NCBI GenBank assembly: GCA_963790445.1
Contig: CAWBON010000016.1
Coordinates: 37,501 to 101,500 of the forward strand
Origin: an uncultured Alphaproteobacteria bacterium
GTDB taxonomy: Bacteria > Pseudomonadota > Alphaproteobacteria > Acetobacterales > Acetobacteraceae
DNA length: 64,000 nucleotides
Direction: 5' to 3'
Shown here piece after piece: positions 1,558 to 20,270 of this stretch (positions within the stretch are counted from its first letter, which is position 1; the number at the start of each line of letters is the position of its first letter). The translations under genes were made by a program, and so were the position numbers. Under the pieces are notes generated by a model. That model ran no database searches. It had not been told where the DNA came from and saw nothing but the letters and a program-made list of their open reading frames with translations.

Positions 1558-1615
1558 GCACCGCCCCACAGCCGTGATAATCGAGCGCCTCGCAGCGTGA
1601 CAGGAGGCGGATCTC

Positions 1616-2176: not shown

Positions 2177-2190
2177 CAGTAGGTGCGGAT

Positions 2191-2764
2191 CTAACGCGCG
2201 GCTTTGTGGTACTCGCGGTTCGGCATCATGTCGGTGGCCGAGGCCATGCGGTTCGATAGGTTGAAGAACGCAATGGTCTCGGAGAGATCGAAGATGTCCT
2301 GGCTGGACAGGCCGACGTCGCGCAGCGTGCTGCGATCCGCGTCATCGATCAGCCAGGGCGTTGTGGTGAGCTTCCACGTGTAGTCCAGCATCGCGCGCTG
2401 GCGCGGATCGAGCTTCGCGACGCGATAGTTCAAAGCCATCATCTCGCCGAGTTCCGCATCGCCCGACAGTGCGCGTACCGCGGCACCATGCGCGACCAGG
2501 CAATAGTAGCAGCGGTTGGCCGATGACACGACGACGGCGACCATCTCGCGTTCCAGTTTCGACAGCCCGGAGGCCGCGAGCATGATCTCGTTATACATCG
2601 CCATGAAGTTGCGCAGCCTGCGCGGGTTCAGGCTGTAGGCACTGAACACATTCGGCACGAAGCCAAGCTTGTCGACGCATTTCTGCCAGATGATTTTCAG
2701 GTCGCTCGTCCAGCGTGGCCGGATCGGGAACGCCCAGCTTGGAGATGTGGTCAGGCTGCGGCAT
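2191..2764 (-). CDS. carboxymuconolactone decarboxylase/AhpD-like peroxidase-related protein (frameshifted)
   Basis: 'SSANRCYYCLVAHGAAVR' CxxC motif typical of AhpD/CMD. The N-terminus 'MPQPDHISKLGVPDPATLDE' is in another frame, with the break near 2700. Confidence 0.75.
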
Positions 2765-2872
2765 GGCTGTTGGATCCTTTACAGGAACGGTCCGATTTAC
2801 ACCTGCCTTCCCTTGCGGGCTTGAGCCGCCAAGCGGATCAAGGTTGGGATGGCGGAGCAAATCGGGGCGACG

Positions 2873-3857: not shown

Positions 3858-3871
3858 CGTGATGTGTGTCC

Positions 3872-4634
3872 TCAGAGTTTGCGTTGCAGGTTGGCGACGT
3901 AGGTGCGGTTATGCGTCGGCGCCAGCATCACCTCGCTCATCACCACATGCTTCGGCAGGCAGGCGATGTAGCGGATCAGGTCGCCGCAATCCTCCGACTG
4001 CACCATGCGCGCGCGCTCTTCCGCACCCACCGGATTGGGACGCTTGTCGAGGATCGGCGTCGCAACCTCGCCGGGCAGGAACACGGTGGAGCGGATGCCG
4101 TTGACGCATTCCTCCATGTTGATGGTGTGGCTCATCGCCACCACGCCATGCTTCGCCGCGCCATAGATCGGCCCCGAGAAGCCGCCAATGAAGCGGCCGG
4201 CCATCGAGGCGGTGTGGATCAGCACGCCATCCTTCTGCGCGCGCATGAACGGCAGCGCCACGGTGACGCAATACAGCGCCTGCGACAGATTGCCGTGCAC
4301 CATTTCGTCGATGCCCTCCGGCGTGAGTTTGTCCCAATGCCGATCGCGAATGTTGATGCCGGCGTTGTTCACCAGGATGTCGAGCCGGCCCAGCGTGTCC
4401 TTGATGAATTCGCCGATCTTCTGCACCTGCTTCGAATTCGTCAGATCGGCCGGCTGCACATACGCCGTGCCGCCTTGCTGATGGATGCGCGCTGCCACGC
4501 CCTCCAACGGTTCGCGGCGTCGTCCGGTAAGAACGGTGGTGGCGCCCTTCCTCGGCCAGGGCCAGCGCGGCGGCTTCTCCTATGCCGCTTCCCGCGCCGG
4601 TGATCCAGGCAATCTTACCCGCGAGCCTCGGCAT
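3872..4634 (-). CDS. SDR family oxidoreductase (frameshifted)
   Basis: N-terminus '[30 protein letters not shown]' (TGxxxGxG) in one frame, remainder ('LVNNAGI', 'YGAAKHGV') in ORF 3872-4507. Break near 4520. Confidence 0.8.
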
Positions 4635-4773
4635 GAATATTTCCTCCGTGTTGCGAACTTGCGTGGGCGCCATTGAACGTGTTTGCCTGTGGCGGGGCAA
4701 GGGAGGAGCGCCGCGATGGCAACGGTACCTGAGCGATGCCGGCGAAATAACAGTCGCCGCGACAAACGGGATT

Positions 4774-5796
4774 ATGGCTGTCGGCCGGGGACGCTGCGCA
4801 GCGCAACCGGTTGGACGCTGAAACCGGAGGGCATGTGCCAGGCCGAACTCTGCGTGCCATTGCCGGCAACCGCCGTGCAGCGGCGATCGCGTCGACGTGG
4901 CGGCGTTCTGGCAATTGCTCGATCGGCCGGTGGTGCGTGACACTGTCGGCGAAACCTGGGTGCTCGGCGCGGGCGCTGATGAACGCAACAACGCGCTCGG
5001 CCGGGTTGATCGCGCCGGATTTCACGCTGCCTGATCTTGCCGGCGTGCCGCACACGTCTGTCCGCTTTGCGCGGGAACAAGGTCTTCCTCAGTACCTGGG
5101 CCTCCTGGTGAGGCTGTCGCTTTGACTTGCCCGTGTGGCAGCAACTGTTCGACAGCCTGAAGTCCGAAAAATTCATGATCGTGGCAGTGGCGGAGGAAAG
5201 CCGCGGTGCGGAGCATGCGCGGCAGTGGATCGAGCAGGCTGACGCGAAGTACTGGTGCCTGATCGATGAGGATCATCGCGTCGCCGATCTGTACGGCATG
5301 GTCAACGTGCCGCAGGCGGTGTGGATCGATGAGACGGGGCGCATCGTGCGGCCGCCGGAAACCGCGGGCTCAACCGATCATTTTCGGCTGATGGACCGCA
5401 CCACGCGCACGCTCGCGCCCGAGCATCAGGCGGCCCGACAGGATGCGCGCACGGCGTATCTGGATGCGGTGCGCGAGTGGGTGCTGACCGGCCGGTATCG
5501 CGCTGCCGAGTGACGCGGCTCGCCGGATGTTGCCGCGCATCACGCCAGAGATCGCGCTCGCACAGGCGCATTTTCGCCTGGGCGTTTGGCTGCGCCGGCA
5601 TGGCAAGACCGGCGAGGGCGACGCGCATCTGGCGGAAGCCAGCCGGCTGCATCCGGACTCATGGAACATCTGGCGCCAGGCCGCCGATCTGGACGAGGTC
5701 GGCAAGGCAAGCGGCGAAGCGTTCTGGCTGCGCGTGCAGGCGCTGGGCGACCGGCCGTACTATCCGCCGCCAGAACTGCCGCATTCCGACACCTGA
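4774..5796 (+). CDS. TlpA/ResA-like thioredoxin-fold protein with in-frame TGA (selenocysteine candidate, motif WASW-U-GC); several frameshifts; start uncertain
   Basis: Stitched: 'GWTLKPEGMCQAELCVPLP' / 'DRVDVAAFWQLLDRPVVRDTVGETWVLGAGADERNNAL' / 'GLIAPDFTLPDLAGVPHT' / 'LSALRGNKVFLSTWASW[TGA 5109-5111]GCRFDLPVWQQLF...' / tail 'MLPRITPEIALAQAHFRLG...'. The TGA is in frame with ORF 5127-5513. Confidence 0.6.
5112..5157 (+). other. putative bacterial SECIS-like stem-loop immediately 3' of TGA 5109-5111
   Basis: GGCTGTCG (5112-5119) pairs perfectly with CGACAGCC (5150-5157). Inner helix TTGCC/GGCAG (5127-5131/5137-5141) has apical loop CGTGT at 5132-5136. Confidence 0.45.
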
Positions 5797-5814
5797 TCCC
5801 GGGAGCCAACATCA

Positions 5815-6627
5815 ATGGCAACCACCGATTCCGCGTTCGCCGGTTCGATTCCCGCGCTGTACGATCGGCACCTCGGGCCAGTCATGTTCGAGCCCTATGC
5901 AACGGACCTGGTTCGCCGACTGCCAAAGCTCGGCGATGGCGCGATCCTGGAAATTGCCGCCGGCACCGGCATTGTCACGCAGCAGCTGGCGGCCGCATTG
6001 CCGGCGGCGGTTCGCATCGTCGCCACCGATCTCAACCAGCCGATGCTGGACCATGCGGCGAGCAAGCCCGGCATGACGCGCGTGACGTTCCGCCAGGCCA
6101 ATGCGCTCGCATTGCCGTTCATGGCCGCGATGAGTTCGATGTCGTCGTGTGCCAGTTCGGCGTGATGTTCTTTCCCGACCGCGTAGCGGCCTACCGGGAG
6201 GCGCTCCGCGTGCTGAAGCCGGGCGGACAGTTCGTGTTGAACGTCTGGGATACGCTTCCGCTAAATCCGCTCGCTGAAGTTGCCAGCGATGCAGTGGCGG
6301 CCCGCTTCCCACGCGATCCACCGCAATTCCTCGTTCGCGTGCCTTACACATATAACGATGCCGCCGTGATACGTGCCGATCTGGCGGCGGCCGGATTTGC
6401 CAGCATCGCAATCGAGACGGTCGCCTTGACCGGCCGCGCCGCGTCGCATCGCGATCCCGCGATCGGCTTCTGCCAAGGTTCGCCAATGCGCAACGAGATC
6501 GAGGCGCGTGATCCCAACGGATTGCAGGCGGCCACCGATGCCGCAGCCGATGCGCTGGCCGCACGCTTTGGCACCGGCGCCATCGACGGCACCGATGCAG
6601 GCGAAAGTCATAACTGCATCGGCCTGA
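5815..6627 (+). CDS. class I SAM-dependent methyltransferase (frameshifted)
   Basis: '[15 protein letters not shown]' motif I, '[15 protein letters not shown]', '[12 protein letters not shown]'. Breaks near 6125 and 6590. The C-terminus '[10 protein letters not shown]' is recovered in a third frame. Confidence 0.8.
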
Positions 6628-6633
6628 CGTCGC

Positions 6634-7003
6634 CTATTTGCAGGGGAAGCGTTCGGCCAGGAAGTGCAGCAGTCCATCCACTGCTCCCTGCGTCCTATGC
6701 TCCGGCAATGCGCGCACCCAATTGACGAACTCGGCCAGCGTTGCGGTGCGGGTCGGCGCCGGGCTGGGGAAGCAGAACGGCTTCTTGTCGCCGGCGTGAC
6801 GCAGCTCGACGTCAACGGCGCCCTGCGCGAAGCCGTGGCAGTAGTTGATCTTGGCGTCGCCCTGCGGATCCTTCGGATTGGCGCCGCACAGATCGGCGAG
6901 ATCGCCCGCCGTGCGCACATGGATGTCCAGGGCGCGCTGCGCCTGTGCCGGCAGCGCGAAGCAGGATGGCAGCGAGGGCGACGATCGGGGCGACGGATTT
7001 CAT
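6634..7003 (-). CDS. exported Rap1a/Tai-like (immunity-protein-fold) protein (frameshifted)
   Basis: Signal peptide '[15 protein letters not shown]' in ORF 6812-7003. Body 'GDLADLCG...[12 protein letters not shown]...PFCFPSP...ERFPCK' has the Cys pattern I associate with Rap1a/Tai4-type domains. Assignment is from memory only. Confidence 0.5.
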
Positions 7004-7760
7004 GCATTCTCTCCTGGCGGCAAGGGTGTGCCGATTGAAGCCGACCCGGCGCCGTCGCGCCAGCGCTGCCAGCCGGCGGCGCGCAGCTCGCAGGCTGGGC
7101 AGGTGCCGCAGCCGTAGCCCCAGTCGTGGCGATGCGTGCGGTCGCCGAGATAGCAGCTATGGGTTTCGCGTCCGGATCAGTTCCACCAGCGCGTCGCCGC
7201 CGAGCGCGTGCGGCCAGCGCCCAGGTGGCGGCCTTGTCGCGCCACATCAGCGGCGTCTCCAGCACGAAGCGGCGCTGCATGCCGAGGTTGAGCGCGAGCT
7301 GCATCGCCTTGATCGTGTCGTCGCGGCAGTCGGGATAGCCGGAGTAGTCGGTCTCGCACATGCCCGCGACGATGCGACGCAGGCCGCGGCGATACGCCAG
7401 CGCGCCGGCGCAGGTGAAGAACAGCAGGTTTCGCCCGGGGACGAAGGTGTTGGGCAGGCCCTCCGCGGTCATCGCGATCGCGGTGTCGCTGGTCAGCGCG
7501 GTGGAACCCAGCGCGGCTAGGGTCGTCGGACAGATCGACCATGTGGTCGGGGCCGAGCCGGCCGGGCCACAGCGGCGGCCAACGCGTCGCGGACCGGCGC
7601 GCGGCACTCCAGCTCCACCGCGTGCCGCTGGCCGTAGGCAAAGCCGACGGTCTCGACATGCGGGTAGCGGTGCCAGCGCCCAGGCCAGGCACGTCGTGCT
7701 GTCCTGCCCGCCGGAGAACAGCACCAAGGCGTGGTCAGGATTTTCCGGCGTTGTCGGCAT
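7000..7760 (-). CDS. queC: 7-cyano-7-deazaguanine synthase QueC (multiple frameshifts)
   Basis: '[19 protein letters not shown]' PP-loop, '[17 protein letters not shown]', '[12 protein letters not shown]', '[21 protein letters not shown]', C-terminal Zn motif '[13 protein letters not shown]'. Pieces lie in 3 frames. Confidence 0.85.
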
Positions 7761-7815
7761 GGGCGTTCGGGGTTTTGGTTTGGTCCAAGGCAGGTCATAC
7801 GATCCGGCACGATGG

Positions 7816-8052
7816 CTAGAAAGCCATCAGCTCGATGCGCGGCAGGAAATCCTGCGAGCGGTTCCAGTCGGGTTTCGCGTGCTTTTCCATGAGGCCTGTA
7901 ACGAGCAGACATCTGGTTGCCCCGTCGTCCACCAGCGCAATGCTACCGAACAGGGTCACGCTGCGATAGGCCAAGTGGTCATGCTCCAGAAGCCTCCAGC
8001 AGATGCGACAGGGACATCGCCAGGTCGGTCCGGCGCGCGATGGGCACGTCAT
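7816..8052 (-). CDS. hypothetical small protein (tail resembles the C-terminus of PNPOx-like FMN-binding proteins); start/frame uncertain
   Basis: Tail '[36 protein letters not shown]' looks protein-like. The N-terminal part of this frame is Cys/Arg/Trp-rich and probably out of frame. Confidence 0.25.
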
Positions 8053-8212
8053 CACAATTTCCTTGCGATCACCGAGGACGGATGCTGCGCGACGGAGTGG
8101 TCTGTCCGGAAGCCTGAACTCCCGGTATGTCGGCAGACCATTCGGGCACAGTCGGGCAGACCTGCGGCCGCATGCACTCGCAACGCCGCCCCGCACACCA
8201 TATGCTCCCGCC

Positions 8213-9038
8213 ATGGACCTCGATTTCACCGAAGACGAAATCCGCCGGTACTCCCGCCACATTCTGCTGCAGGACGTCGGCGGCATCGGCCAGGCAAAGC
8301 TCAAGGCCGCGCGGGTGCTGGTGATCGGCGCCGGCGGGCTGGGCTCGCCGCTGGCGCTGTATCTGGCGGCCGCCGGGGTCGGCACGATCGGCATCGTCGA
8401 CCATGACCACGTGGAACTGTCGAACCTGCAACGCCAGATCGCCCACACCACCGACCGGATCGGCGCTCCGAAGGCAGACTCCGCGGCACAGGCAGCCCAC
8501 GCGATCAACCCGGCGGTGCGGATCGAGCCGCTCAGCGTGCGCCTCGACGCCGACAACGCAGCCGAGTTGATTGCCCGCTATGACGTCATCTGCGACGGCA
8601 CCGACAATTTCGCCACGCGCTTCCTGGTGGCCGATGCGTGCGTGCTGGGCCGGCGCACCTTGGTGTCCGCCGCCGTGCTGCGCTTCGAAGGGCAGCTTTC
8701 GGTGTTCAAGCCACACGTTGCACGGGGGCGGCCCGTGCTACCGGTGCCTGTATCCCGAACCGCCGCCGCCGGGCGCGGTGCCGACATGCAGCGAGGCCGG
8801 CGTGCTGGGCGCGGTCACCGGCGTCATGGGCACCCTCCAGGCGACCGAAGTGCTGAAGGAGATCCTCCGCATCGGCGAGAGCCTGTCCGGCAAGCTGCTG
8901 ATCTGGGACGCACTGGCGACACGTTTCCGTACCGTGCGGCTGCGCCAGGACCCGCATTGCGCGCTGTGCAGTCCGGAGGCGACGATCAAGGACCTGTCGC
9001 AGCACCGCGATGCCGCGGTCCCGGCCTGTGCCAGCTGA
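8213..9038 (+). CDS. moeB: HesA/MoeB/ThiF family adenylyltransferase (frameshifted)
   Basis: 'RYSRHILLQDVGGIGQAKL...VLVIGAGGLGSP', 'LQRQI', two CxxC pairs ('CYRCLYP', 'CALC'). Break near 8715 between ORFs 8003-9232 and 8571-9038. Confidence 0.85.
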
Positions 9039-9408
9039 ACCGCTTGGCATCCTGCTGCTGTCCGGTGCGCATGACCGCGCGCATTACGCGTTCGTGGTTG
9101 CGTCCGGCGCGGCGGCGCTTGGCCGTCAGGTGGTTCTCTTCGCCACCAATGCCGGCTGCCATGCATTGCTGGCGGACTGGGCAGGTCTCACGGATGCCGG
9201 CCGCGACGCCCGCGCGCGCGCAGCCGGCGTAGCGGGACTGGACGAGCTGCGCGAGGCGACGCGCGAGATGGGCGCGCGGCTGATCGCGTGCGAGGCCGGA
9301 CTGCGGGTCGAAGGACTGGACGCGGCGGGTCTTATGCCGGGTGTTGAGGTGGCCGGCATCGCGACGTTCCTCGAGGCTGTCGGCAACGGGCAGATCGTTT
9401 CCATATAA
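9010..9408 (+). CDS. DsrE/DsrF-like family protein
   Basis: 132-aa ORF. 'ILLLSGAHDRAHYAFVVASGAAALGRQVVLFATNAG...LIACEAGL...IATFLEAV' matches the DsrE-like pattern. The real start is probably downstream of 9010. Confidence 0.7.
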   Translation: MPRSRPVPAEPLGILLLSGAHDRAHYAFVVASGAAALGRQVVLFATNAGCHALLADWAGLTDAGRDARARAAGVAGLDELREATREMGARLIACEAGLRVEGLDAAGLMPGVEVAGIATFLEAVGNGQIVSI

Positions 9409-9752
9409 CTCGGGCGCGCCAACCAAGTCGGGCCAATGCGATCAGGGGTATCGCAAGTCGGACAGGGAGTTTCATCAACTGCACACAGAGTTTCACGGAG
9501 AATGTTCAGGCCTGCGCGCAACGCGCTTCGACCAGCCAGTTGCACCATGCGCCATGCAGACATCGTCTCTGGAAAACCTGTGTGCGACTTGCTTGCGATG
9601 CCACCCTCCCCGTTGATCCAACTGCATTGGCGCGCACAACGCCGAAGTCCATCAACCGCCAGCCTTGCCTGACCGGATTGGCGGGGCCTACGCTGCCAGG
9701 CAATGGTGCCATGAGCGCCTTGAACGGCTTCTCCCCCTGACGCGCGTCAGGG

Positions 9753-10718
9753 ATGGCAGTTGCAAGAGGAGGCTTCGCTATGTCTGGTGGCAGTCCCGGC
9801 ACCTCGTCAACACGGATCGAACAACTGGCGCCCGAGTTGGAGAAGATCGTCGCCGTCTCGGAGCCGATCCATCACTTGGCCGACGGGTTCGGCGGCTCGC
9901 ACGGCCCGGCTGAAGGACCGGTCTGGTGGCAGGAAGGCGGCTACCTGCTGTTCAGCGACATCCACAACAACAAGCGCATGAAATATGTGCCTGGCGTGGG
10001 CGTCTCGCTGTTCCAGGAACCGACGAACCGGGCCAATGGGCTGACCCGGGACCTTCAGGGCAGGCTGCTCGCCTGTGAGCACGACAGCAGGCGCGTCACG
10101 CGGCAGGAGCTCGATGGCAGCATCACGGTGATCGCCAACAGCTTTCAGGGGCGGCAGCTCAACCGGCCCAATGATGTGGTGGTGAAGTCCGACGGCTGCA
10201 TCTACTTCACCGACCCGTGGACCAGTCCCGCGCCGCCCCAGCAATGGGACCTGACGTTCTCCGGCGTTTACCGCGTGACGCCCGATCTCGGCACGATGAC
10301 GCTGCTGATCGGCGACTTCGTGGTGCCCAACGGACTGGCGTTCTCACCCGATGAACAGGTGCTCTACATCAACGACTCGCGCCGCGGTCACATCAGGGCG
10401 TTCGACCTGATGCCGAACGGGACGCTCGCGAAGCAGACCGACCGCGTGTTTGCCGACCTGCGCGGCATTGAGCCCGGTGTGCCCGACGGCATGAAGGTGG
10501 ATTCGGCAGGCAATGTGTACTGCGGCGGCGCCGGCGGGATCTGGATCATGGATGCCAAGGGCAAGAAGCTAGGACGCATCGTGCATGGCGCTTCTGCCAC
10601 CACCAACGTCGGTTTCGGTGGCGATGACTGGAAGACACTGTACTTCACCAGCCGGAATCACCTGGGCGCGGTCGGCGTGAAGATACCCGGCATTCCGGTG
10701 CCGGCTGCAAAGAGGTAG
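9753..10718 (+). CDS. SMP-30/gluconolactonase/LRE family protein
   Basis: Intact 321-aa ORF. 'EGPVWW...LLFSDI', 'NRPNDVVVKSDGCIYFTDP', 'PNGLAFSPDE', 'PDGMKVDSAGNVY' beta-propeller repeats. Confidence 0.85.
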   Translation: MAVARGGFAMSGGSPGTSSTRIEQLAPELEKIVAVSEPIHHLADGFGGSHGPAEGPVWWQEGGYLLFSDIHNNKRMKYVPGVGVSLFQEPTNRANGLTRDLQGRLLACEHDSRRVTRQELDGSITVIANSFQGRQLNRPNDVVVKSDGCIYFTDPWTSPAPPQQWDLTFSGVYRVTPDLGTMTLLIGDFVVPNGLAFSPDEQVLYINDSRRGHIRAFDLMPNGTLAKQTDRVFADLRGIEPGVPDGMKVDSAGNVYCGGAGGIWIMDAKGKKLGRIVHGASATTNVGFGGDDWKTLYFTSRNHLGAVGVKIPGIPVPAAKR

Positions 10719-10895
10719 CAGTCGTTCTCGCCTCGCTGGACCGTCTGCATTGCAACCAGACGAGCGATTCTCAGCGGCATGACGGCGTGGCCGCTGCGGC
10801 CTTCCAGCAATTGACAGGCGAGCCGACGCTGGCGAGTTTCGGCCAAGCCCATCGTTATCATTCGTAAGGCTCCCCGTTCGATCGCATAACTCGCG

Positions 10896-11840
10896 TCAAT
10901 GGTACCGACGCAGAATCAGGCTCATCGGCCAGTCACGATTGTGCTCCTCCACCAGCACGCTCACCGTCGTCCGTTCCTCCCACGCTTCGCGCACCAGCAC
11001 CTCGATGGCGTGCTCGCGTCCGCGGAACCGATGCTCGTGCCCCGCTTCGGTCAGGATCACAAACCCGCAGAAGTCGCCGAAGCGATCGTAGTGTATGGCC
11101 ACCACTTTTCCGGTGTACTCGTGTTCCTTGACCGGCGGGAACGGCGGTGGCGGCTCGTGATGCACTGGGTGTTTGCCGGGCACGTTGCCGACCTGCGATG
11201 GTGGGATTGCGCCGGGGTCCTGTCCGAGGCTCAGCACGAGGCCCTCCGTCAACATAAGATACCGCTGAAGCACGGGCAGCCAGCGGTTGTTTGGCGGAGT
11301 GACTCCGATGCGCCATTTCAACCACGCCAGCAGCCGCTCCTGCGGATAGAGCAGCTCCTGTCCGGGCGTCACGGTGACGGTATATTGGAATGCACCCAGG
11401 ACCTGACGCCAGGAGAATGTCGTCCCCTTCCCGATGCTCTCGGCGACACGGGTCGCAACTTCGATAACCGGTGGCGGCGGTTCGGATCGAACCGTGGCGC
11501 TCACCAGCGTGAGCTGGCGCACGGCGATCGAGTAGGCGTCACGCTGTTTGACCGCCGGCGGCAGATCCACCGCCAGCAACCCTGCATATCGTCCCAGACC
11601 TTGCGGGATCGGAACCAGCGTCACGTCCCCGACGGGACACTGGATCGTGTGTACATCGATCGCGCTCAGGAGGTGCTTTACGTACATTTTGTCTGCCAGC
11701 GCGATGATCTCGGCTGCGGCGACGGCGGGCAGATAAATGGTGCCGATACCGCCCCGGGGTGTTTTGCCCCAGGTGATCATCAGTTCGTCCGCAGGCTGCG
11801 TGGCAGCCGACGCCTTGATCTCGAACGGGTGCGCGATCAT
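10896..11840 (-). CDS. hypothetical protein, downstream partner of the large orphan protein
   Basis: Intact 314-aa ORF. Its ATG overlaps the upstream stop (ATGA at 11837-11840). C-terminal module 'VVAIHYDRFGDFCGFVILTEAGHEHRFRGREHAIEVLVREAWEERTTVSVLV'. No family recognised. Confidence 0.7.
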   Translation of the reverse strand: MIAHPFEIKASAATQPADELMITWGKTPRGGIGTIYLPAVAAAEIIALADKMYVKHLLSAIDVHTIQCPVGDVTLVPIPQGLGRYAGLLAVDLPPAVKQRDAYSIAVRQLTLVSATVRSEPPPPVIEVATRVAESIGKGTTFSWRQVLGAFQYTVTVTPGQELLYPQERLLAWLKWRIGVTPPNNRWLPVLQRYLMLTEGLVLSLGQDPGAIPPSQVGNVPGKHPVHHEPPPPFPPVKEHEYTGKVVAIHYDRFGDFCGFVILTEAGHEHRFRGREHAIEVLVREAWEERTTVSVLVEEHNRDWPMSLILRRYH

Positions 11841-14004
11841 GGCTGAACCCCTAGCCAGGCGATGTTTCGTTGCGCGAGCTTGTCGGTCGTGGCCGTGGTC
11901 GCGCCGTTCGGTATGGGCGTATCATCGAAACGGATCTCTGCGATCAGGCACTGGTGCGGAGCGGCAGCCACCACGCCGTTGAGCGACTCGGTCCCGCTCC
12001 ATGGCCCATCCCATTGCGACTGCAGGAACGGCGGCGTCGGGATCAGGAACGGCGTCGTCTGGTTCACATCGAGCCAACAACCGAAATACGTATCGACTTC
12101 CGTGCCGGGCACGGTCGTGATCATCACCGCGTTCGGCGGGTCCGTTTGCGTCTTCATGTCGGCGGGCGATGTCAGATTGACCCGGTCGGTCGCAAAACAG
12201 GGCACTGTGATGTACTCGGAGCCGAAACCAAGGAAGCCCTCTTGAACACCCAGCAAGGCGATCTTGTGTCCGGGTGTGCCGTTCGGTACCCCATCGATAA
12301 GTACCCGCGCCTGTGCCGACGTCGGTAAAGTTCGAGACTGTGCTCGCGGCACTGAACAGGCGAAAGAAAACCCGGACGGGGCCGACCGTGGTGGTGATGC
12401 CGGACTTGAGCCTGACGCGCGCCACAGCGAAGTTGAAGGCAGGGACAAACGATTCGTCGTTCGGAAAGAACACGATCGCCGACCCTTCCTCGTCCTGCGT
12501 CAGTGCGTTGTCGAACGTGTCGCCATTGGTGATCTGGCTGGGATTGTTGAGATTGTTAAGGACCTGACGGATGTAGGGGATGGCGCCACTGGCGTCCGTC
12601 GGGTTTGGTACGCTGAACATCTGGTGCGGCTGATCGGACGCGACGGTGAAAATCCGCAGGTCGAAACTGAGCCACGTCGGATAGGATGTCGGATTTGCCG
12701 GGTTCAGGTTGAACAGATACGGATCCTCGCCTTTCGCCAGTTCGATATTCGCCTGGCAGCTCACCGGCACAGCGGTCGTCGTAATGTTGTTGTTCGAGTC
12801 GATACCGGTCGGGACTTGCACCGTCAGGTTGGCAGTCAACGTCACGATCGCGACCTGATGCGCGTTGAGCGCGTTCAAGGCGTTCTGGTTGGGAAAGGAA
12901 ATGGTGAACGGGTACAGGAATGTCTGGAAGTTCAGGTTGAGCGTATCATCGATCGCCAGCACCGGCGGTGGGCCGAACGTATTCACCACAGGCAGATTGC
13001 CCGAGATCGTCGCGACCTGGGTGGCCGTCAGGCCGGGATTTAAAGCCGGGTTAAACGTGGCGGCGACCGTTGGCAGGGGACTGGGATTTGCGTTGGACAG
13101 ATTTGGCGGCGAGTTGAAACCCAGTGCGGAGTTGGGGAAACCGTTGACCGCCAGCCAGAACGCCGATCCCCATGTCGGGTTCTGCGTCACTTCGTCCTGC
13201 CCGAACGTGGACTTGTCGAAGTTGAACGACATGTTCATCGCGGTGACGTACATGCTCTGGCTCACTGTCGAGCCAGTAGCTGGCGTCACGTCGCCATACA
13301 CCACATTGGAAGTCTCGCCTGTGCCGGGCTGCGGGCCGCCGCAAGCCGTGCTCGCGTCCTGTAAAGCAAGCGTACCCGGGGACACCGAGTAGGTCAGGGT
13401 GCCCGCGCCTGACGTGAACGTACACGGCGCAAGGCCACCGGGTCCGACAATGTCGAGTTGGAAGCCATAGATCGGATACGTGGCGCCCGTCGGGAATGTA
13501 AACGACGTGTTGGAAACATTGCCGCTGGGATCCGTGACGCTGAATGCCGCGCTGGTGACATTGCCGCTGGTATCAGTCGTAAGCTGAATTTGCATGACCG
13601 AGCCAGCCAGAATTTGGTTCGACGGCGCAGGGCCGAACGACTGGACCTGAAAGTCCTTGGATAGTACCCGGCAGCCATGGCGTCGTGTTCGGAGGATTTG
13701 GTGTGTACCCTGGCGGCCAAAGTTGGCCGGGTGCATAACTCGTCGCCCCGACTGCCCAGTACTGGATCTCCCAGCCAAGCTGGTTGTTCAGCGGCCCACC
13801 AACATAAATTATATACTGAAACCAATTGATGGACTGGTTCTGGCTCGTCGATCCCGGTTGAGGATACGAATTCAACTGCACCGAGAATCCGGTGTTCCCC
13901 ACAGTCACCATATCTTCCGTGACATTCAGGGTTACACTCAGGTTCTGCAGGTTCTGACAACTGTCAACGAGAATCGCGTTGTTGCTGCTGCTCAGGAAAC
14001 TCAT
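11837..14004 (-). CDS. large (~722 aa) Asn/Thr/Pro-rich hypothetical protein (2 frameshifts)
   Basis: Stitched from ORFs 13573-14004, 11922-13778 and 11837-12448 (breaks near 13670 and 12285). No signal peptide. C-terminus 'HQCLIAEIRFDDTPIPNGATTATTDKLAQRNIAW'. No family recognised. Confidence 0.7.
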
Positions 14005-14193
14005 GGTTGATCGTCCCCCCTACGCAATGCAGTCGTGACATGTGCACGGGACTGACTTCGTCGGGCCTGCCAGTCCTCTGGCGACAGCGCAGATCTTCAA
14101 CGCGGCGCAGATGATGGCTCCACCACATCCGCGGACGTTGCCTTGGGCGAGCGTGAGTTGAATTCTACGTCTCTAACGTTGCCTTTTCAACAT

Positions 14194-14217
14194 ACAATTG
14201 CATGAAACAATTGCATG
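14194..14217. repeat. tandem direct repeat ACAATTGCATG-AA-ACAATTGCATG upstream of the orphan cassette
   Basis: Exact 11-nt repeat at 14194-14204 and 14207-14217, about 190 nt upstream of the 14004 start codon. Adjacent 8-bp-stem hairpin CGAGCGAG-TTGG-CTCGCTCG at 14226-14245. Confidence 0.6.
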
Positions 14218-14362
14218 TCCGGCTGCGAGCGAGTTGGCTCGCTCGACACCACGCGAATGAATGGTCCTGGCTCTGTGGAATTGTCGAGCGGCGGGTTTCG
14301 AGCAGCACGCTTTGTCCGCTTTCCCATGCTGTCCTGACGTTAGTCCAGCGAACTGCCGCCAA

Positions 14363-15957
14363 TCACCCTACCCGCCGCCCCTGCCCCACCCAGTACCGCT
14401 CCCGCAACATCCGACGCAGCACCTTGCCGGTCGCGTTGCGCGGCAGCGACTCCACGAAATCCACCGACTTCGGCACCTTGAACCCGCCGATCCGTTCGCG
14501 CGCCCACGCGATCACCGATGCCTCGTTCGCCACCGCGCCACGCTTCGGCACGATGATCGCCTTCACCGCTTCCCCCATCGCTCATCCGGCACACCGATCA
14601 CCGCCACCTCGGCCACATCCGGATGGCCATCGATCGCATTCTCCACCTCGGCCGGATAGACGTTCTCGCCGCCTGACACGATCATGTCCTTCACTCGGTC
14701 GTGGATGAACAGATCGCCGTCGCCATCCAGCCAGCCGGCATCGCCGGTGCGGTACCAGCCATCCGCATCGATCGCGGCCGAGGTCGCCGCTGGCTGTCGC
14801 CAATAGCCGCGCATCACGCCGGCGCCGCGCACCGCGACCTCGCCCACCTGGCCCTGCGCCACGTCGTCCCCCGAGGCATCCAGCACACGCAATTCCACCC
14901 CCGGCACGGGCTTGCCGCAGGACAGCAGCTTGCCCGGCAGATGCGCGTCGGGCGGCAGGCTGGTCACCACGCCGGTCGCCTCGGTCATGCCGTAGACCTG
15001 ACTGAACGCGCAGGGGAACCGCGCCATCGCGCGCCGCAGCAGGTCCTCCGAGATCGGCGACGCGCCGTAGAAGATCTGCTCCAGCGCCGAGAAATCGGCA
15101 TCCGCCGCGTCCGGCGCCGCCAGGATCATCTGGATCACCGTCGGTGTCAGGAACGCATAGGCGACCCGCTGCTCGGCGATGACCCGCGCCAGCTCCGCCG
15201 GAACGATCTCGCGCACCATCACCGCACGGCAACCTTGCGAGACCGCGAGCAGCCCGACGATGGCGCCGGCAACATGGAACACCGGCAACGCCAGCAGCGC
15301 GGACTTGCCCGCCTGCCACCGTCCGTAGCTGAGTTCCCGGCCGACCCGGCATTGCGCCAGACAGTTGGCATGGCTCAGCGGCACGCCCTTCGGCAGCCCG
15401 GTGGTACCCGACGTGTAAAGCTGGGTCACGTCGTCGTCGGCATCGGCCGCCAAGCACGGGTCCTCTGCCGGGCACGCGCCGATCCAGGTGTCGAAACCCC
15501 GGGTGTCGAAGCGCCGGGTGTCGAAGCCAGAGTGCACCGCATGTCCTGGCTCGAACTGCACCAGCGTGCGCAGGTCCGGGCACTCGCCCCCGATGCTCTC
15601 GACCACGCCGGCGAACTCCTGCCCGAACACCAGAACGCCGGCGCCACTGTCGCGCAGGATTGCCGCAATCTCCACCGCCGCAAGGCGCGTGTTCACCGGC
15701 ACAATGCACGCGCGTGCCTTCAGCGCACCGAACCACAGCACTGGGAAGGCATCGGTGTTCTTGCACAGCGTCGCGACGCGTTCACCCGGCCGCGTGCCGG
15801 TGGCAAGCAATGCCTGCGCACACCGACTGGACTGCATATCGAGCTCGCCGAAGCCGGTGTCCCGTCCCTCGAACCAGAACGCGGCCGCGTCGGGACGCAG
15901 ACGCGCCTGAACGCGAACGAAATCGGTCACTGTGGTGACGTCATCGGCCCGGGACAT
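14363..15957 (-). CDS. AMP-dependent synthetase/ligase (acyl-CoA synthetase family; frameshift near the 3' end)
   Basis: 'LYTSGTTGLPKGV' AMP-binding motif, 'YGMTEATG', 'GWYRTGDAG', 'KDMIVSGGENVYP'. C-terminus 'FKVPKSVDFVESLPRNATGKVLRR' lies in ORF 14363-14578. Confidence 0.85.
15487..15528 (-). repeat. in-frame 15-nt tandem repeat (about 2.8 copies) inside the acyl-CoA ligase gene
   Basis: + strand GGTGTCGAAACCCCG / GGTGTCGAAGCGCCG / GGTGTCGAAGCC. Encodes 'GFDTRRFDTRGFDTW' on the minus strand. Confidence 0.8.
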
Positions 15958-16240
15958 GGTTCCCTCCGCACCGGCGTTCACGCGGCTTGGTTGGTCGTAG
16001 TCTAGGCGACGTCGGTCCTTCGGTGCCACAATTACGACCAGTGGGCGAAGCCGACGGTTTCTTGGCGCCCTTTGCTTTGAATCCCTTGCGAAACCCAATC
16101 GGCCCAACTCCCGATGCGATCGCCCAGGATCCGTAGCCAACGTACGTTCCCTCAACCGATCGCGTCGCCTTCATCCAATTCCCGGCGATTGCCGCGCTGC
16201 GTGCTTGACCCGGCTCGCCGAGACTTGGCAACCATGATCC

Positions 16241-17023
16241 ATGTCCATTCCGACATCGGTGCCACTGTTTCGCCTGCTGCTGTGCGGGATGCTTGTCGCG
16301 TCGTCCGCGGCCTTGGGCCAAACGATCCCCACCCCGCCAACCGGCACACTGCAATTGCCCCCGAAGCGGGCGACCACGCCCGCCAGGCCGCCGACCCCAA
16401 TCAAGACGGCGCCGCGCGAACCGGTGCATCGAGTCGAGCCGAAGTCACCACCAGTGGTGCGGCCACATGGCGCGCCACATGCACTGAAGCCACCACCGGC
16501 AAAGCCGACCACTGCCGTTCCCGCCGTCGCTCCGCCGAAGCCACCGGTTCCGGTCGAGCCACCAAAGCAACCCGAAGCCGAGAACAAGGGTTCCACCACC
16601 GGCCTGCCATTGCCGCGCTTCGTCGCATTGCGCACCGATGACGTGAACCTGCGCGCCGGGCCGGGCACGCGCTATCCGATCGAGTGGGTTTACAAGCGTC
16701 GGGAACTGCCAGTGGAGATCCTGCGCGAGTTCGAGGTCTGGCGCCTGGTGCAGGACGCGGACGGCATTAAGGGTTGGGTGCATCAGGCGACCATCACCGG
16801 CCGGCGCAGCTTCATCATCACCGGCGGCGACGCCACACTGCGGCACGAGGCGCAGGACAGTGCTGCGCCCGTGGCGATCCTGAAAGTCGGCGTCGTCGGG
16901 CATCTGCGTTCCTGCCAGGCGAACTCCGACTGGTGCCAGGTACAGGTCGATGACTACCGCGGCTTCCTCAAGCGCAGCCAGTTCTGGGGCACGCTGCCGG
17001 ACGAAGCAGTCGCTAACAACTAA
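16241..17023 (+). CDS. exported SH3b-domain protein with Pro-rich linker
   Basis: Signal peptide 'MSIPTSVPLFRLLLCGMLVASSAALG', Pro-rich spacer, then 'VNLRAGPGTRYPIEWVYKRRELPVEI...DGIKGWVH' and a second SH3-like half. Confidence 0.8.
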   Translation: MSIPTSVPLFRLLLCGMLVASSAALGQTIPTPPTGTLQLPPKRATTPARPPTPIKTAPREPVHRVEPKSPPVVRPHGAPHALKPPPAKPTTAVPAVAPPKPPVPVEPPKQPEAENKGSTTGLPLPRFVALRTDDVNLRAGPGTRYPIEWVYKRRELPVEILREFEVWRLVQDADGIKGWVHQATITGRRSFIITGGDATLRHEAQDSAAPVAILKVGVVGHLRSCQANSDWCQVQVDDYRGFLKRSQFWGTLPDEAVANN

Positions 17024-17174
17024 ATCGCCTGTCGGACGGACAAGCCGAGCGATTCCGGCGGATGTGTCCAATACCGGCGGAATGCGCTGCGCCGTTCCGC
17101 CGGGGCGGCGGTCCCGCGGACAGGCAAAGCTTCCGGCTTCCCAGCAGGTGCCTCGGTGCACTATCGTACGGCGC

Positions 17175-17483
17175 ATGGATAAGGACGTGCCGCGCGCCCA
17201 CCACGACATGGGAGGCGTTTCGAAATACCTGTGCGAGGCGGTGGATGTCGAGCCGCACGCGCTGACCGACTTCGACAAGGAGGTCGACGCGCTTGCTGCG
17301 GTGCTGAGGATGAAGCGCATGTTCACGGTGGACGAGATGCGCCGTGGCATCGAGGCGATTCCCGAGGCCGAGTACCACCGCCTTAGCTACTACCGCCGCT
17401 GGATCCGCTCGATCACCGACAATCTGCTGAAGCAGGGCGTGATCACCGAAGCGGAACTTCGCGCCGCGCTGGACCGCGTGTGA
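17175..17483 (+). CDS. nitrile hydratase beta-subunit N-terminal-half homologue (separate gene)
   Basis: 'HHDMGGV' and 'TVDEMRRGIEAIPEAEYHRLSYYRRWIRSITDNLLKQGVITEAEL' match the N-terminal half of NHase beta. The stop overlaps the next start (GTGTGATG). Confidence 0.75.
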   Translation: MDKDVPRAHHDMGGVSKYLCEAVDVEPHALTDFDKEVDALAAVLRMKRMFTVDEMRRGIEAIPEAEYHRLSYYRRWIRSITDNLLKQGVITEAELRAALDRV

Positions 17484-17767
17484 TGCCGGATTTCGCGGCC
17501 GGTGCGCGCGTGCGTGTCAGGAACGATTGGCCGGAGACGCATGGCCCGGTGCATATCCGCACGCCGCACTATCTGCGTGGCTTGCAGGGCACGGTGGTGC
17601 GGCAACTCGGCGTGTACCCCAACCCGGAGGACCTCGCGTTCGCGCGCCCGGCGGCCAGCCATCCATTGTATCACGTGGCATTCGACCAGCCCGCGGTGTG
17701 GCAGGAAGGCCAGGCGGGCGACGAACTGTTGGTTGAGATCTACCAACATTGGCTGGAACCGGCATGA
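17480..17767 (+). CDS. nitrile hydratase beta-subunit C-terminal (SH3-like) half homologue (separate gene)
   Basis: 'GARVRVRNDWPETHGPVHIRTPHYLRGLQGTVVRQLGVYPNPEDLAF...LYHVAFD...LLVEIYQHWLEP' matches the C-terminal half of NHase beta. ATGA overlap with the alpha gene. Confidence 0.75.
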   Translation: MMPDFAAGARVRVRNDWPETHGPVHIRTPHYLRGLQGTVVRQLGVYPNPEDLAFARPAASHPLYHVAFDQPAVWQEGQAGDELLVEIYQHWLEPA

Positions 17768-18351
17768 ACATCCTGGAAGCCGACAGCGAGAAGCTGCTGA
17801 CCGCGGTGCGCGATCTGCTCGCGGCGAAAGGCGTGGTCTCCAATGCGGAAATCTCTGAGCGGATCGCAATCACCGATGCCGCCAATCCCGGCCAGGGTGC
17901 GCGCATGGTGGCGAAGGCATGGACCGATTCGGCGTACCGCGCACTGATGCTGGCGGACGGCGCCAAGGCAGCCGAGGAACTAGGCATTCCGATGCGCGGC
18001 GCGCCGCCGCTCGGCGTGCTGGAGAATACTGCCGAGGTGCACAACCTGGTGGTTTGCACGCTGTGCAGTTGCTATCCGCGCGCGGTACTGGGCTACCCGC
18101 CGTTCTGGTTCAAATCCGCCGCCTATCGCGCGCGCGGGGTGCGTGACCCGCGCGGATTGCTGACCGAATGGGGCACGGTTCTGCCTGCCGGCGTGAAGAT
18201 CCGCGTCGTTGATTCCACCGCCGATTATCGCTGGATGGTGCTGCCTGCGCGTCCCGCGGGCACGGAAGGTTGGAGTGAGGCACAGCTCGCGGCGATCGTG
18301 CGCGAAGGCGACATGATCGGCGTCACAATCCCGGTGCTGCCAGCACATTGA
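17764..18351 (+). CDS. nitrile hydratase alpha-subunit family protein (Co-type VCTLCSC motif)
   Basis: 'HNLVVCTLCSCYPRAVLGYPPFWFKSAAYRAR'. CTLCSC is the metal-binding claw, and Thr at position 2 is the cobalt-type signature. Confidence 0.85.
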   Translation: MNILEADSEKLLTAVRDLLAAKGVVSNAEISERIAITDAANPGQGARMVAKAWTDSAYRALMLADGAKAAEELGIPMRGAPPLGVLENTAEVHNLVVCTLCSCYPRAVLGYPPFWFKSAAYRARGVRDPRGLLTEWGTVLPAGVKIRVVDSTADYRWMVLPARPAGTEGWSEAQLAAIVREGDMIGVTIPVLPAH

Positions 18352-19303
18352 CCGACCGGCTCGGGGAGTATCGCTCCACCAGATAAAGCGGCCGGTGTTT
18401 GGTTTCGTTGAAGACGCGGCCGAGATATTCGCCGATGATGCCGAGTGTGACGAGTTGCGTGCCGCCGAGGAACAGGATCACCGCCATCAGGCTGGGATAG
18501 CCGGCGACCGGATTGCCGAACATCAGCGTGCGCAGGATCAACTGCGCGCCGAACAGCACCGCGAAGATGGCGACGACGAGGCCGAGATAAGTCGCCAGCT
18601 TCAACGGGCCGACACTGAAGCTGGTGATGCCCTCGATCGCGAAGTTCCATAGCTTCCATAGCGACCACTTGGTGGCGCCGGCGCCGCGTGGCTCGCGGTC
18701 GTAGAGGATCGCGGTACTGGGAAATCCGACCCAGGCAAACAGGCCTTTCATGAAGCGATGGTGCTCGCGCAACTGCTGCACGGCATCCACCACGCGACGG
18801 CTCATCAGGCGGAAATCGCCGACATTCGGTGGCAGCGGCACTTCGCCGACGTTGCGCATGATGCGGTAGAATGCCGCGGCGGTGCGTTTCTTCAGCCACG
18901 TGTCGCCCTGGCGCAGGCGACGCTGGGCGTAGACCATATCGTGGCCGGCACGCCACGCAGCAACCAGCCGGGGAATCACCTCCGGCGGGTCTTGCAGGTC
19001 GGCGTCGATCACGATGACCGCATCGCCGCATGCGTGATCGAGGCCGGCCGTGGTGGCGATTTCCTTGCCGAAATTGCGCGACAGGTTGACCAGCGCGATG
19101 TGGCTATCGGCAAGCCGCAATGCTTCGACGACGCGCAGGGTGGTGTCGCGACTGCCGTCGTTGACGTAGATGACTTCCCACGGCGCATCCAGCGTCGCCA
19201 TGGCCGCGGCCAGGCGCCGGTGCATGTCGCCGATGATCTCGGCTTCGTTGAACATCGGCACGACGACCGAGAACACCGGCCGCGTTTGCGACTGCGTGTC
19301 CAT
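18323..19303 (-). CDS. family 2 glycosyltransferase (GtrB/polyprenyl-phosphate glycosyltransferase-like)
   Basis: Intact 326 aa. 'FSVVVPMFNE', 'VIYVNDGSRD', 'VIVIDADLQDPPE', two C-terminal TM helices. Confidence 0.85.
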   Translation of the reverse strand: MDTQSQTRPVFSVVVPMFNEAEIIGDMHRRLAAAMATLDAPWEVIYVNDGSRDTTLRVVEALRLADSHIALVNLSRNFGKEIATTAGLDHACGDAVIVIDADLQDPPEVIPRLVAAWRAGHDMVYAQRRLRQGDTWLKKRTAAAFYRIMRNVGEVPLPPNVGDFRLMSRRVVDAVQQLREHHRFMKGLFAWVGFPSTAILYDREPRGAGATKWSLWKLWNFAIEGITSFSVGPLKLATYLGLVVAIFAVLFGAQLILRTLMFGNPVAGYPSLMAVILFLGGTQLVTLGIIGEYLGRVFNETKHRPLYLVERYSPSRSVNVLAAPGL

Positions 19304-19758
19304 TCAGACTGCGATGATATGACGCCATTGGGTGAATGCGGGCTTAACGCCGGGTCCGCCGGTCAATGTGGGTTCCACACCGGCCGGCGGCGAATCATCC
19401 CTGGATGAAACCGGTGTACGCAACCTCTTGCAGTCATGGCGGCCTGCCGCCGTGAAGGCGCGGGTACGCAAGAGTATCGCGATGGCGATCTGGCGGTGTT
19501 CGGGGGACCGCATCCTCCGGGCGATTACGACGGGCGTGACGCTATCGTGCGGTCATTCCAGCATGCCGAATGACACGCTACCGTCGCGGCTGTTCTGCGC
19601 CGGGGCATGCGCCGGCACAGAACCAGAACGGAATGGACAGATCACCCGCTACCAAAAACCGGCCAGATTGATTAGCTTGCAACACGCGGTCTGCGGTAGA
19701 CCACGCAATCGCCTATCGCTTCGTCTCCCGGGATGTTGGCGTGACGAAGCCGTGCGAT

Positions 19759-19832
19759 GCGGGTGTAGTTCAATGGTAGAACGGCAGCTTCCCAAGCTGC
19801 ATACGAGGGTTCGATTCCCTTCACCCGCTCCA
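19759..19832 (+). tRNA. tRNA-Gly (anticodon CCC)
   Basis: 74 nt: GCGGGTG acceptor stem pairs with CACCCGC, anticodon arm GCAGC-TTCCCAA-GCTGC (anticodon CCC), T-loop GGTTCGATTCC, encoded 3' CCA. Confidence 0.9.
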
Positions 19833-20270
19833 GCCTACATCGGCGGAGCGACACCATCCCTGCAGACGGGATGTCCCCTGAACAGTTCCGGTCACGGTGC
19901 CGTTGGTCATCATGCTGCCCGGCTCGAGGTCCCACGGATAATGCCCCTCGCCAGTCCCGCGCATGGCATCGGGGAACACCAGCACTTCGATCGCCTGCTG
20001 CTCGCCGTTGGCCCCGTTCCTGGTGGCGATGCCGACATAGCTGCCGCCCTTGATATCGGCGAGTTCGATTTTTTTCACCGCGGCGACGGTCGGTGGGTCG
20101 TGCAGCAGGATGGCGACCGTCGGTCCTTCACGCGTGGCGACGGTCGTGGTCTCGCCCTCGACGGAGGCAATGGTGCCGCGAACCCGAATGGGCGGCGCGG
20201 TTGTTTGGGCGACGGCAGCAACGGCGAACAATGCGGCGGCCAATGCCGCGGGCAATGCGCGTTTAAACAT
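19821..20270 (-). CDS. hypothetical exported protein
   Basis: 'MFKRALPAALAAALFAVAAVAQ' signal peptide followed by a beta-rich body. The 3' end overlaps the tRNA by 12 nt, so the C-terminus may be out of frame. Confidence 0.5.
   Translation of the reverse strand: MFKRALPAALAAALFAVAAVAQTTAPPIRVRGTIASVEGETTTVATREGPTVAILLHDPPTVAAVKKIELADIKGGSYVGIATRNGANGEQQAIEVLVFPDAMRGTGEGHYPWDLEPGSMMTNGTVTGTVQGTSRLQGWCRSADVGWSG

Follow-up and report, generated by a model that had tools for sequence, protein, structure and literature searches.

Two overlapping genes at positions 14004-10896 (minus strand) of a 64,000-nucleotide (nt) stretch of contig CAWBON010000016.1, from an uncultured Acetobacteraceae bacterium, are the subject of this analysis; we call the whole stretch the window. 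Their products, of 721 and 314 amino acids (aa), are halves of one structural unit that elsewhere is mostly a single polypeptide of ~1,000-1,400 aa. The unit is built from a variable N-terminal head of enzyme or lectin type, a conserved beta-sandwich core and a partner module. Neither the platform of core and partner nor the whole system fits any known kind, and both are unclassifiable with current resources. We tentatively regard a leaderless polymorphic effector or exo-enzyme system with non-classical deployment as the best explanation of these genes. The two proteins are laid out as follows.

13239-14004 (aa 1-255 of the large protein), minus strand: head, a ConA-like beta-sandwich; holds the first probably spurious G, at ~13667
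11837-13238 (aa 256-721 of the large protein), minus strand: core, beta-sandwich domains and one helical insert; holds the second probably spurious G, at ~12284; ends in the stop codon TGA at 11839-11837
10896-11840, minus strand: partner, an N-terminal beta-sandwich (aa 1-115), a Pro-rich loop, a strand and helical hairpin, a Pro/His linker and a C-terminal domain

The two proteins are halves of one unit

At 79 of 80 loci (the locus analyses cover 80 of the 251 genomes with relatives) the core has a partner homologue immediately after it, and in 66 of these 79 the two are fused in frame, with no stop between them. The best 150 representatives are also mostly single chains. Split genes occur only in the clade that has the window's head type, where the large genes read ...IAWLGVQP or ...IAWLDGPQ directly before the stop codon. 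The single chains read ...QRNIAW-IDGPNPGxxxSRxMPHPFE... at the junction, and NPG or NPA is present in the junction loop of 152 of the 176 single-chain members. The translationally coupled, functionally linked pair proposed by an earlier reading of the window, made without database searches (the sequence-only reading), is therefore proven by synteny and by in-frame fusion.

An AlphaFold2 (AF2) model of the single-chain relative P0074 (predicted template modelling score 0.73) gives the core and partner a predicted local distance difference test score (pLDDT) of 80-98; values below 50 are confined to the junction loop (residues 668-677). As modelled, the gene fission sits in a flexible, sequence-conserved surface loop between core and partner. 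We infer an obligate heterodimer of the 721-aa and 314-aa proteins.

It is extremely unlikely that the 314-aa protein neutralises the 721-aa protein as an immunity protein or antitoxin would. The 4-nt ATGA overlap between the genes and their tight co-occurrence do recall bacteriocin/immunity and toxin-antitoxin operons, but core and partner form one polypeptide in the 66 fused loci and in most of the best 150 representatives, and AF2 packs them into one body. Moreover, the partner is conserved like the core over all head types, whereas immunity proteins would co-vary with the toxin. The fusions thus contradict the earlier guess of a toxin with a cognate partner in the toxin/immunity sense.

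The frame breaks in the large gene

The large gene (14004-11837, minus strand) is joined from the minus-strand open reading frames (ORFs) 13573-14004, 11922-13778 and 11837-12448, which lie in three successive frames, while the partner gene (11840-10896, minus strand) is intact. The stitching had been proposed from the letters alone and agrees with P0001, an intact 721-aa metagenomic protein that is 97% identical to the stitched product. Alignment against the P0001 protein and the DNA of contig L001 traces the first break to an extra G in CCGG[G]TAC at ~13667 and the second to an extra G in TACC[G]AAC at ~12284, in agreement with the earlier placements near 13670 and 12285. The ATGA at 11840-11837, in which the partner's ATG (11840-11838) is shared with the large gene's TGA (11839-11837), and the intact 314-aa partner were likewise as the sequence-only reading described them.

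The L001 contig is 94.4% identical to the window in DNA over 18.5 kb; its genes stand in the same order and none of them is broken: AMP-binding ligase, 721-aa gene, 314-aa gene, SGL gluconolactonase, DsrE and ThiF. Over this length, 58 gap openings separate the window from L001, mostly 1-nt insertions in the window, and nearly all genes are affected, including those for a 2-hydroxyacid dehydrogenase (4), QueC (4), ThiF, the acyl-CoA ligase, SDR, CMD and a methyltransferase, among others. Examples within the left third of the window (945-19395) lie at 14568, 8723, 7532-7169, 5090-4729 and 3723-3016. Among members of the 90%-identity cluster, 17 of 19 are intact at 721 aa. Measured against L001, the head has a ratio of nonsynonymous to synonymous substitution rates (dN/dS) of 0.06, and core and partner each have 0.12; neighbouring genes range over 0.03-0.17, and the synonymous rate (dS) of the cassette resembles that of its flanks.

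Since indels strike nearly all window genes, relatives are intact and there is no dN/dS excess, the two frame breaks appear to be sequencing or assembly errors of a kind common across the window's genes and not specific to the cassette. The substitution pattern indicates a functional two-gene operon under purifying selection in the window lineage. We consider it very unlikely that both frameshifts are genuine and the large gene is a decaying pseudogene, dead in the window strain. The frameshifts do occur in the public assembly: public protein P0463 is the window's truncated middle ORF, so the breaks were already present there, and P0445 is the partner, both from one NCBI/ENA contig. However, gaps of the same kind run through genes such as ThiF, QueC and the dehydrogenases, nonsynonymous changes are not in excess (0.06-0.12), and the 17 intact near-identical sequences come from other samples. 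Programmed frameshifting was also rejected, given that relatives lack the extra bases and that comparable errors occur throughout the window. As a practical matter, broken ORFs in this assembly are likely assembly errors and should not be taken as pseudogenes.

Some further features emerged from the same region. The plus-strand ORF 10899-11846 (315 aa) is a high-G+C antisense shadow of the partner gene and not a gene. At ~15497-15526 the minus-strand AMP-binding ligase gene has 30 bp that L001 lacks, inserted in frame as tandem copies of a ~15-bp unit and yielding the peptide repeat FDTRRFDTRGFDT. Synteny with L001 ends at window positions 19395-19869, beside a tRNA gene (19759-19829, plus strand); at the break L001 has ~1.8 kb with NmrA-like and lipocalin-like genes, compared with ~280 bp in the window.

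A conserved platform with no family match

The core (466 aa) contains ~50 invariant residues in 58 sequences that range down to ~33% identity; many are polar, and they cluster in the last 200 residues. They include R544/R548, R607, Q619, D621, N624, E635, W643, D645, N647, Q648, H683-Q684-C685, E689, D693 and D707-KLAQRN713. Two regions of the partner can be delimited further.

11417-11229 (aa 142-204), minus strand: strand and helical hairpin, the hairpin itself being aa 160-204
10896-11126 (aa 239-314), minus strand: C-terminal domain, beta-beta-beta-alpha-beta-beta by DSSP and pLDDT, with the motif GKVxxIxYDRFGDFxGF

Invariant residues of the hairpin region are E167, R186, W187, R193, Y194, R201, G206 and G207. 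The last ~75 aa of the partner form a separate domain behind a low-confidence Pro/His linker in the AF2 model, consistent with the compact autonomous domain that had been read from the sequence. By modelled topology this tail is OB-like. It has no Pfam match, and in BFVD its hits are phage DNA-ligase OB domains, which at probability 0.98-0.99 but E 0.02-0.05 over 86-107 columns are weak. In some members the tail is swapped for 2-4 predicted transmembrane helices that follow basic residues, namely in 5 of 57 genome loci (L062, L070, L074, L081 and L083, in the C-terminal ~100 aa), in P0102 and P0104, and in 7 of 95 representatives. Bacillus cereus and B. wiedmannii have a Cys-rich helical tail in place of this domain. 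Used as the sole query, the tail retrieved only short stand-alone fragments, probably frameshift products, and no new architectures.

Neither core nor partner gave a credible match in Pfam, NCBIfam, PADLOC, PHROGs, PDB sequences or profiles, PDB by Foldseek, or BFVD. The Pfam, NCBIfam, PADLOC and PHROGs searches covered both proteins, their sub-domains and distant members, and only heads matched. The earlier statement that the pair belongs to no recognisable family therefore stands for the conserved parts, which no curated family or solved structure matches. Literature and accession searches returned nothing on the family. Thus, ~770 strongly conserved residues are without a curated family, a solved or matching structure, or literature, yet they occur in more than 2,000 clusters from ~ten phyla.

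Several specific candidates were dropped. A weak PIN match in the partner (E 0.02) was below the cut-off, and the region is modelled as a beta-sandwich. Foldseek searches with the single-chain model returned only generic tandem Ig-like or adhesin-type sandwiches (TM-score <=0.22, root-mean-square deviation >18 A). At these values, and with no signal peptide, the protein does not qualify as an MSCRAMM or Ig-like surface adhesin. A capsid or nanocompartment is unsupported, the same model having no capsid, tail-fibre or toxin match in PDB or BFVD. Three motif resemblances had no hidden Markov model (HMM) or fold match to back them: AQRNIAW to the thioester-domain TQxAIW, PHQC(L)(I/V) to the L,D-transpeptidase SHGC(I/V)R, and a sortase-like set of H, C and R.

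The head is a divergent ConA-like domain

The head is modelled by AF2 at pLDDT mostly above 90, apart from a long low-confidence insert at aa 86-120, and the model of the large protein is mostly beta, as had been suggested from its composition. The closest PDB structures by Foldseek are scytalidoglutamic peptidase, YncM and neprosin (probability 1.0, TMt 0.42-0.53), followed by legume lectins, galectin and PL7 lyases; individual values are E 2.2e-5, probability 1.00 and TMt 0.42 for 2ifr_A, E 2.8e-4 for 1s2b and E 1.8e-3 for 7zvb, with 4hfs also matched. The head thus has the ConA-like beta-sandwich by which G1 eqolisins are recognised, a fold that lectins and PL7 lyases also match. No Pfam family matches aa 1-255 at E<=10, so the head does not belong to Peptidase_A4/G1 by profile. 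On the strength of the model, the head is best described as a new, sequence-divergent member of a known fold class.

Eleven residues (C16, Q43, N45, W61, Q63, C221, T228, E230, S232, Y236 and Q249) are invariant in 81 head sequences, a set with 14 proteins that have tachylectin-type or other propellers, rather than the core, attached to this head. The dyad of G1 glutamic peptidases and their pepstatin-insensitive activity at acid pH have been defined (PMC3009609). In 1s2b the pair is Q53 (...AILQTG...) and E136 (...NAEFIIED...), with Q43 or Q63 and E230 as the candidate counterparts in the head. All three head residues lie on or next to strands in the AF2 model, making a G1-like Gln/Glu dyad possible. 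The head shares its fold with the G1/G3 peptidases (1s2b/2ifr and neprosin, 7zvb) and with ConA-like lectins, and other family members bear bona fide peptidase heads. It differs from these peptidases in having no sequence or profile similarity to them, in its length (255 compared with ~206 aa), in the aa 86-120 insert, and in having neither signal peptide nor propeptide.

Exchangeable heads and head-linked small genes

More than 12 head types are found on one conserved core and partner, matching the use of alternative domains that marks polymorphic toxin systems. BNR/sialidase-like propellers are the commonest head in the genome set, and a sedolisin with its pro-kumamolisin domain heads 13 of 40 diverse representatives. 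Other heads are M14 carboxypeptidase, M35 aspzincin, protein-glutaminase, tyrosinase, LodA-like lysine oxidase, galactose-oxidase-like kelch with an E-set domain, GH32-like and kelch/NanM; PLC-type phosphoesterase N-termini were also seen by eye. In two examples inspected by eye, the M14 head of P0098 and a Ralstonia S53 head, the catalytic motifs appear intact.

Some head types come with a small gene of their own. Immediately 5' of 17-20 BNR-headed genes, and often overlapping their start codon, is a gene for a ~110-aa protein with no Pfam match and the motif WPSLEEQL...GSALE.LIR.NQDF..LRPEEA...WLRVYWRK.HP...GGYP. It was located at L014 4404-4727, L002 7673-8011, L090 9687-9998 and L091 9670-10011, and also in L016, L019, L021-L023, L025, L030, L047, L051, L055, L060, L064, L066 and L080. 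Two further unrelated small families, also with no Pfam match, lie 5' of M14-headed genes (L070 4577-4849 and L083 4918-5262; L018 4484-4897 and L089 9591-10004), and their products may be head-specific partners resembling inhibitors or pro-peptides. The window's clade has no small upstream gene. Clustering of the neighbourhoods of 77 loci found no generally conserved accessory or secretion gene, only these head-specific small upstream genes. Separately, a small protein with two transmembrane segments (PDWIE..SG.DPD) recurs near family members, at L065 4302-4634, L067 789-1028, L069 4402-4704, L064 8346-8705 and L021 3976-4338.

The family is large and spreads horizontally

The sequence-only reading called the pair an orphan. 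This did not hold: an HMMER search of 1.84 billion representatives yielded 2,273 clusters at 50% identity with E<=1e-3, and 861 with E<=1e-30. The large protein and the partner each have more than 150 homologues in a 90%-clustered database, and when a single genome was scanned for each species, at least 251 had relatives. The hosts span ~10 phyla (Acidobacteriota, Actinomycetota, Alpha- and Betaproteobacteria, Chloroflexota, Gemmatimonadota, Bacteroidota, Planctomycetota, Bacillota, Dormibacterota and others) and are nearly all metagenome-assembled genomes (MAGs) from soil, plus Caballeronia udeis and Duganella hordei. The nearest genome-resolved relatives of the window protein are from Solirubrobacterales (70%) and Acidobacteriaceae (63-66%).

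Plasmids of Paraburkholderia sprentiae, Ralstonia solanacearum, B. cereus and B. wiedmannii carry copies. The P. sprentiae member (L086, 11873-14809) adjoins a trio of tyrosine recombinases, and the R. solanacearum member (L084, 2149-3950), annotated 'S53 family peptidase', adjoins IS21. The two Bacillus members are annotated 'galactose oxidase early set domain-containing protein'. Single-chain homologues from three of these species are WP_154671791 (P. sprentiae), WP_346825005 (R. solanacearum) and WP_098349523 (B. cereus). We found no copies in phage genomes. Paralogues with different heads are present in some genomes; an acidobacterial MAG (L014) has two core-plus-partner paralogues in tandem, at 6001-8304 and 10898-13075, and one Gemmatimonadaceae MAG has two copies (L076 and L077).

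Because identities of 58-70% connect Actinomycetota, Acidobacteriota and Proteobacteria, and plasmid copies lie next to IS21 or the recombinase trio, horizontal spread of the family is clear. The horizontal acquisition proposed by the sequence-only reading is consequently upheld at the family level, by cross-phylum identity and plasmid carriage, but is not supported as a recent gain in the window lineage, in view of L001 synteny, flank-like dS and near-native G+C at third codon positions (GC3). Acquisition in this lineage predates the split from L001.

Composition and upstream region

The large protein consists of 11.8% T, 9.0% P, 8.7% N, 7.9% S and 7.9% G, with K+R+E+D+H at ~9%, bearing out the Asn/Thr/Ser/Pro/Gly richness noted earlier; it also has no hydrophobic N-terminal segment, in line with the absence of a signal peptide. 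The flanking housekeeping genes were correctly recognised, as an SGL gluconolactonase and an AMP-binding ligase. G+C is 0.59 in the large gene and 0.633 in the partner, compared with 0.644 for the window. The cassette is therefore lower overall, as had been judged by eye, but GC3 is low only in the head (0.69), with the core (0.79) and partner (0.78) nearly native. Since the GC3 of core and partner falls within the range of the neighbours (0.72-0.87), the dip is mostly an effect of amino-acid composition. Low G+C as proof of recent horizontal transfer was rejected on the GC3 and dS comparisons.

The region upstream of the large gene is 358 bp long and contains two candidate elements.

14194-14217, minus strand: paired repeat, CATGCAATTGT twice without mismatch (14217-14207 and 14204-14194), 2 nt apart; the palindrome CAATTG lies in both copies; putative regulator-binding site
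14162-14190, minus strand: sigma-70-like promoter candidate, TTGAAA-17-TAGAAT, ~155 nt 5' of the start codon

The first of these is the exactly repeated 11-mer that had been noticed before, and the pair lies directly 5' of the candidate -35. The promoter candidate matches the consensus at 10 of 12 positions and is weak, with 1 site found and 1.2 expected in shuffled sequences. In L001 the second CATGCAATTGT copy has 1 mismatch and the candidate -10 reads TAGAAC; both elements are thus slightly degraded there and carry little weight. A search of the 5' region with Rfam found no RNA element.

Discussion

We propose that the head is the payload of these proteins. In the window it would be a candidate acid peptidase, as judged from its model, and elsewhere a sedolisin, M14, M35, protein-glutaminase, tyrosinase, LodA-like or galactose-oxidase-like oxidase, or sialidase-like propeller. 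The core-partner platform would supply a common service, keeping the head inactive and targeting or releasing it by a non-classical route, either at the membrane or once the cell has lysed. The two window proteins would work together as the heterodimer, and single-chain relatives would probably be cut at the conserved NPG loop into two pieces. We favour an effector or exo-enzyme because the head classes are normally secreted hydrolases and oxidases, because head and core are poor in charged residues, as is typical of extracellular proteins, and because the family is mobile, often has more than one paralogue in a genome, shows invariant Cys pairs and has small genes linked to particular heads. 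The seemingly intact catalytic motifs of the two heads inspected and the lack of conserved dedicated secretion or accessory genes nearby also enter into this view.

A number of observations weigh against this proposal. No homology ties the platform to a known trafficking, translocation or regulatory module, and among ~140 members inspected no N-terminal hydrophobic segment passes convincingly for a signal peptide, with one borderline case. In the variants with transmembrane tails, the basic residues before the first helix predict that the bulk of the protein is cytoplasmic. As for the window's own payload, the peptidase nature of the head comes from its modelled fold and invariant residues only, and hhalign of the head-bearing large protein with 1s2b (scytalidopepsin B) gave a probability of 0.15 and left the head unaligned. 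Processing of single chains at the NPG loop into the same two pieces as in the window may occur, but is conjecture on our part. Finally, a Bacillus plasmid position between DSR2 and PifA-like genes fits a role in defence.

Such a role, in which the protein would be an intracellular anti-phage or abortive-infection factor with core and partner as sensor or regulator and the head or transmembrane tail as the effector that kills or arrests the infected cell, is the main rival and appears unlikely overall. The absence of convincing signal peptides among inspected members and the cytoplasmic bulk that the positive-inside rule gives the transmembrane-tailed variants both fit it, and a variable effector on a conserved body, horizontal transfer, paralogues and plasmid carriage are typical of defence genes. 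It is also supported by the surroundings of the gene on two related Bacillus plasmids. On the B. cereus 2-6A plasmid (L085, 1650-15902), the member is flanked by full-length DSR2, a PifA-like P-loop gene and a type I-C CRISPR-Cas locus (PADLOC E-values 3e-124 for DSR2 and 3e-75 for the PifA-like gene). On the B. wiedmannii plasmid (L088), a kinase/LanC protein (PD-T4-6/mad6-like) and a PifA-like gene flank the member, with type VII secretion system (T7SS) EndoU toxin genes nearby.

In contrast, no PADLOC-DB 2.0 model matches any member tested (P0001, P0121, P0082, P0098, P0104, and the B. cereus and Ralstonia members), and only ~8 of 118 nearest neighbours (one on each side sampled at ~65 diverse loci) match PADLOC at 1e-10, to generic models. 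Neighbours are housekeeping genes in the window, in L001 and in three other long contigs. None of the head classes, which include acid peptidases with prodomains, tyrosinase, galactose and lysine oxidases and sialidase-like propellers, is known as a defence effector, and several require acidic or oxidising surroundings. The proteins also have no NTPase or nucleic-acid-sensing domain. With DSR2 and Avs-type defence proteins the family shares a variable N-terminal effector on a conserved body, a predicted cytoplasmic location and the Bacillus island beside DSR2 and PifA; it differs in having no PADLOC match, no NTPase and no SIR2, TIR or nuclease modules, and in neighbours that are generally not defence genes.

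A non-toxic scaffold in the cytoplasm or at the surface, self-assembling or binding so as to tether or store metabolic or nutrient-acquisition enzymes and lectins, seems quite unlikely. The generic tandem Ig-like and adhesin-type Foldseek hits, nutrient-type hydrolase heads (GH32, sialidase-like and carboxypeptidase), soil-oligotroph hosts and housekeeping neighbours would all suit it, but ~50 invariant, largely polar residues maintained down to 33% identity are unusual for a passive tether, and head-specific small upstream genes exist. A surface role is also at odds with the missing signal peptide, and assembly with the absence of any capsid or compartment-shell match in PDB or BFVD.

The effector or exo-enzyme reading can be set beside two known designs. 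Like polymorphic toxin systems, the family has a conserved body with many alternative enzymes, paralogues within a genome, a tendency to horizontal transfer, plasmid-borne copies and small genes at the variable end. It differs in that its variable domain is N-terminal with the small gene upstream, rather than C-terminal with the gene downstream, and in that its payloads are secreted-type hydrolases and oxidases rather than nucleases and deaminases. Furthermore, it has no RHS, LXG, PAAR, TPS, MAFB or other trafficking domain, and no linked secretion system was found. Single-chain AB toxins, such as botulinum neurotoxin and the large clostridial toxins, are leaderless and have an N-terminal enzymatic head, then large conserved non-enzymatic modules, and a nicking loop. 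The family shares their leaderless layout with an N-terminal head, and its NPG loop is a plausible processing site; unlike them, it has no sequence or fold match to a translocation or receptor-binding domain, its hosts are free-living soil bacteria of ~10 phyla, and it includes membrane-anchored variants.

A more specific form of the effector proposal is possible but somewhat doubtful. The family would then be an undescribed, cross-phylum polymorphic effector system of soil bacteria, leaderless, with exchangeable N-terminal enzymes of secreted type on a two-part platform that is split or processed at the NPG loop. Among these enzymes would be acid peptidases, metallopeptidases, a protein deamidase, oxidases that generate H2O2 or quinones, and sialidase-like propellers. 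Some heads would have their own small upstream inhibitor-like gene, and the system would possess a new, self-contained means of staying latent and of being released or delivered; the head might, for instance, become active only once cells lyse or once it reaches a predator's acidic food vacuole.

The split form in the window marks a natural subunit boundary, which is useful for expression and structural work, and the family can be put to the test in cultured Ralstonia, Bacillus and Paraburkholderia. Its domain logic, with exchangeable heads that seem catalytically competent, suggests an unrecognised bacterial way to store, regulate or deploy potentially harmful enzymes.

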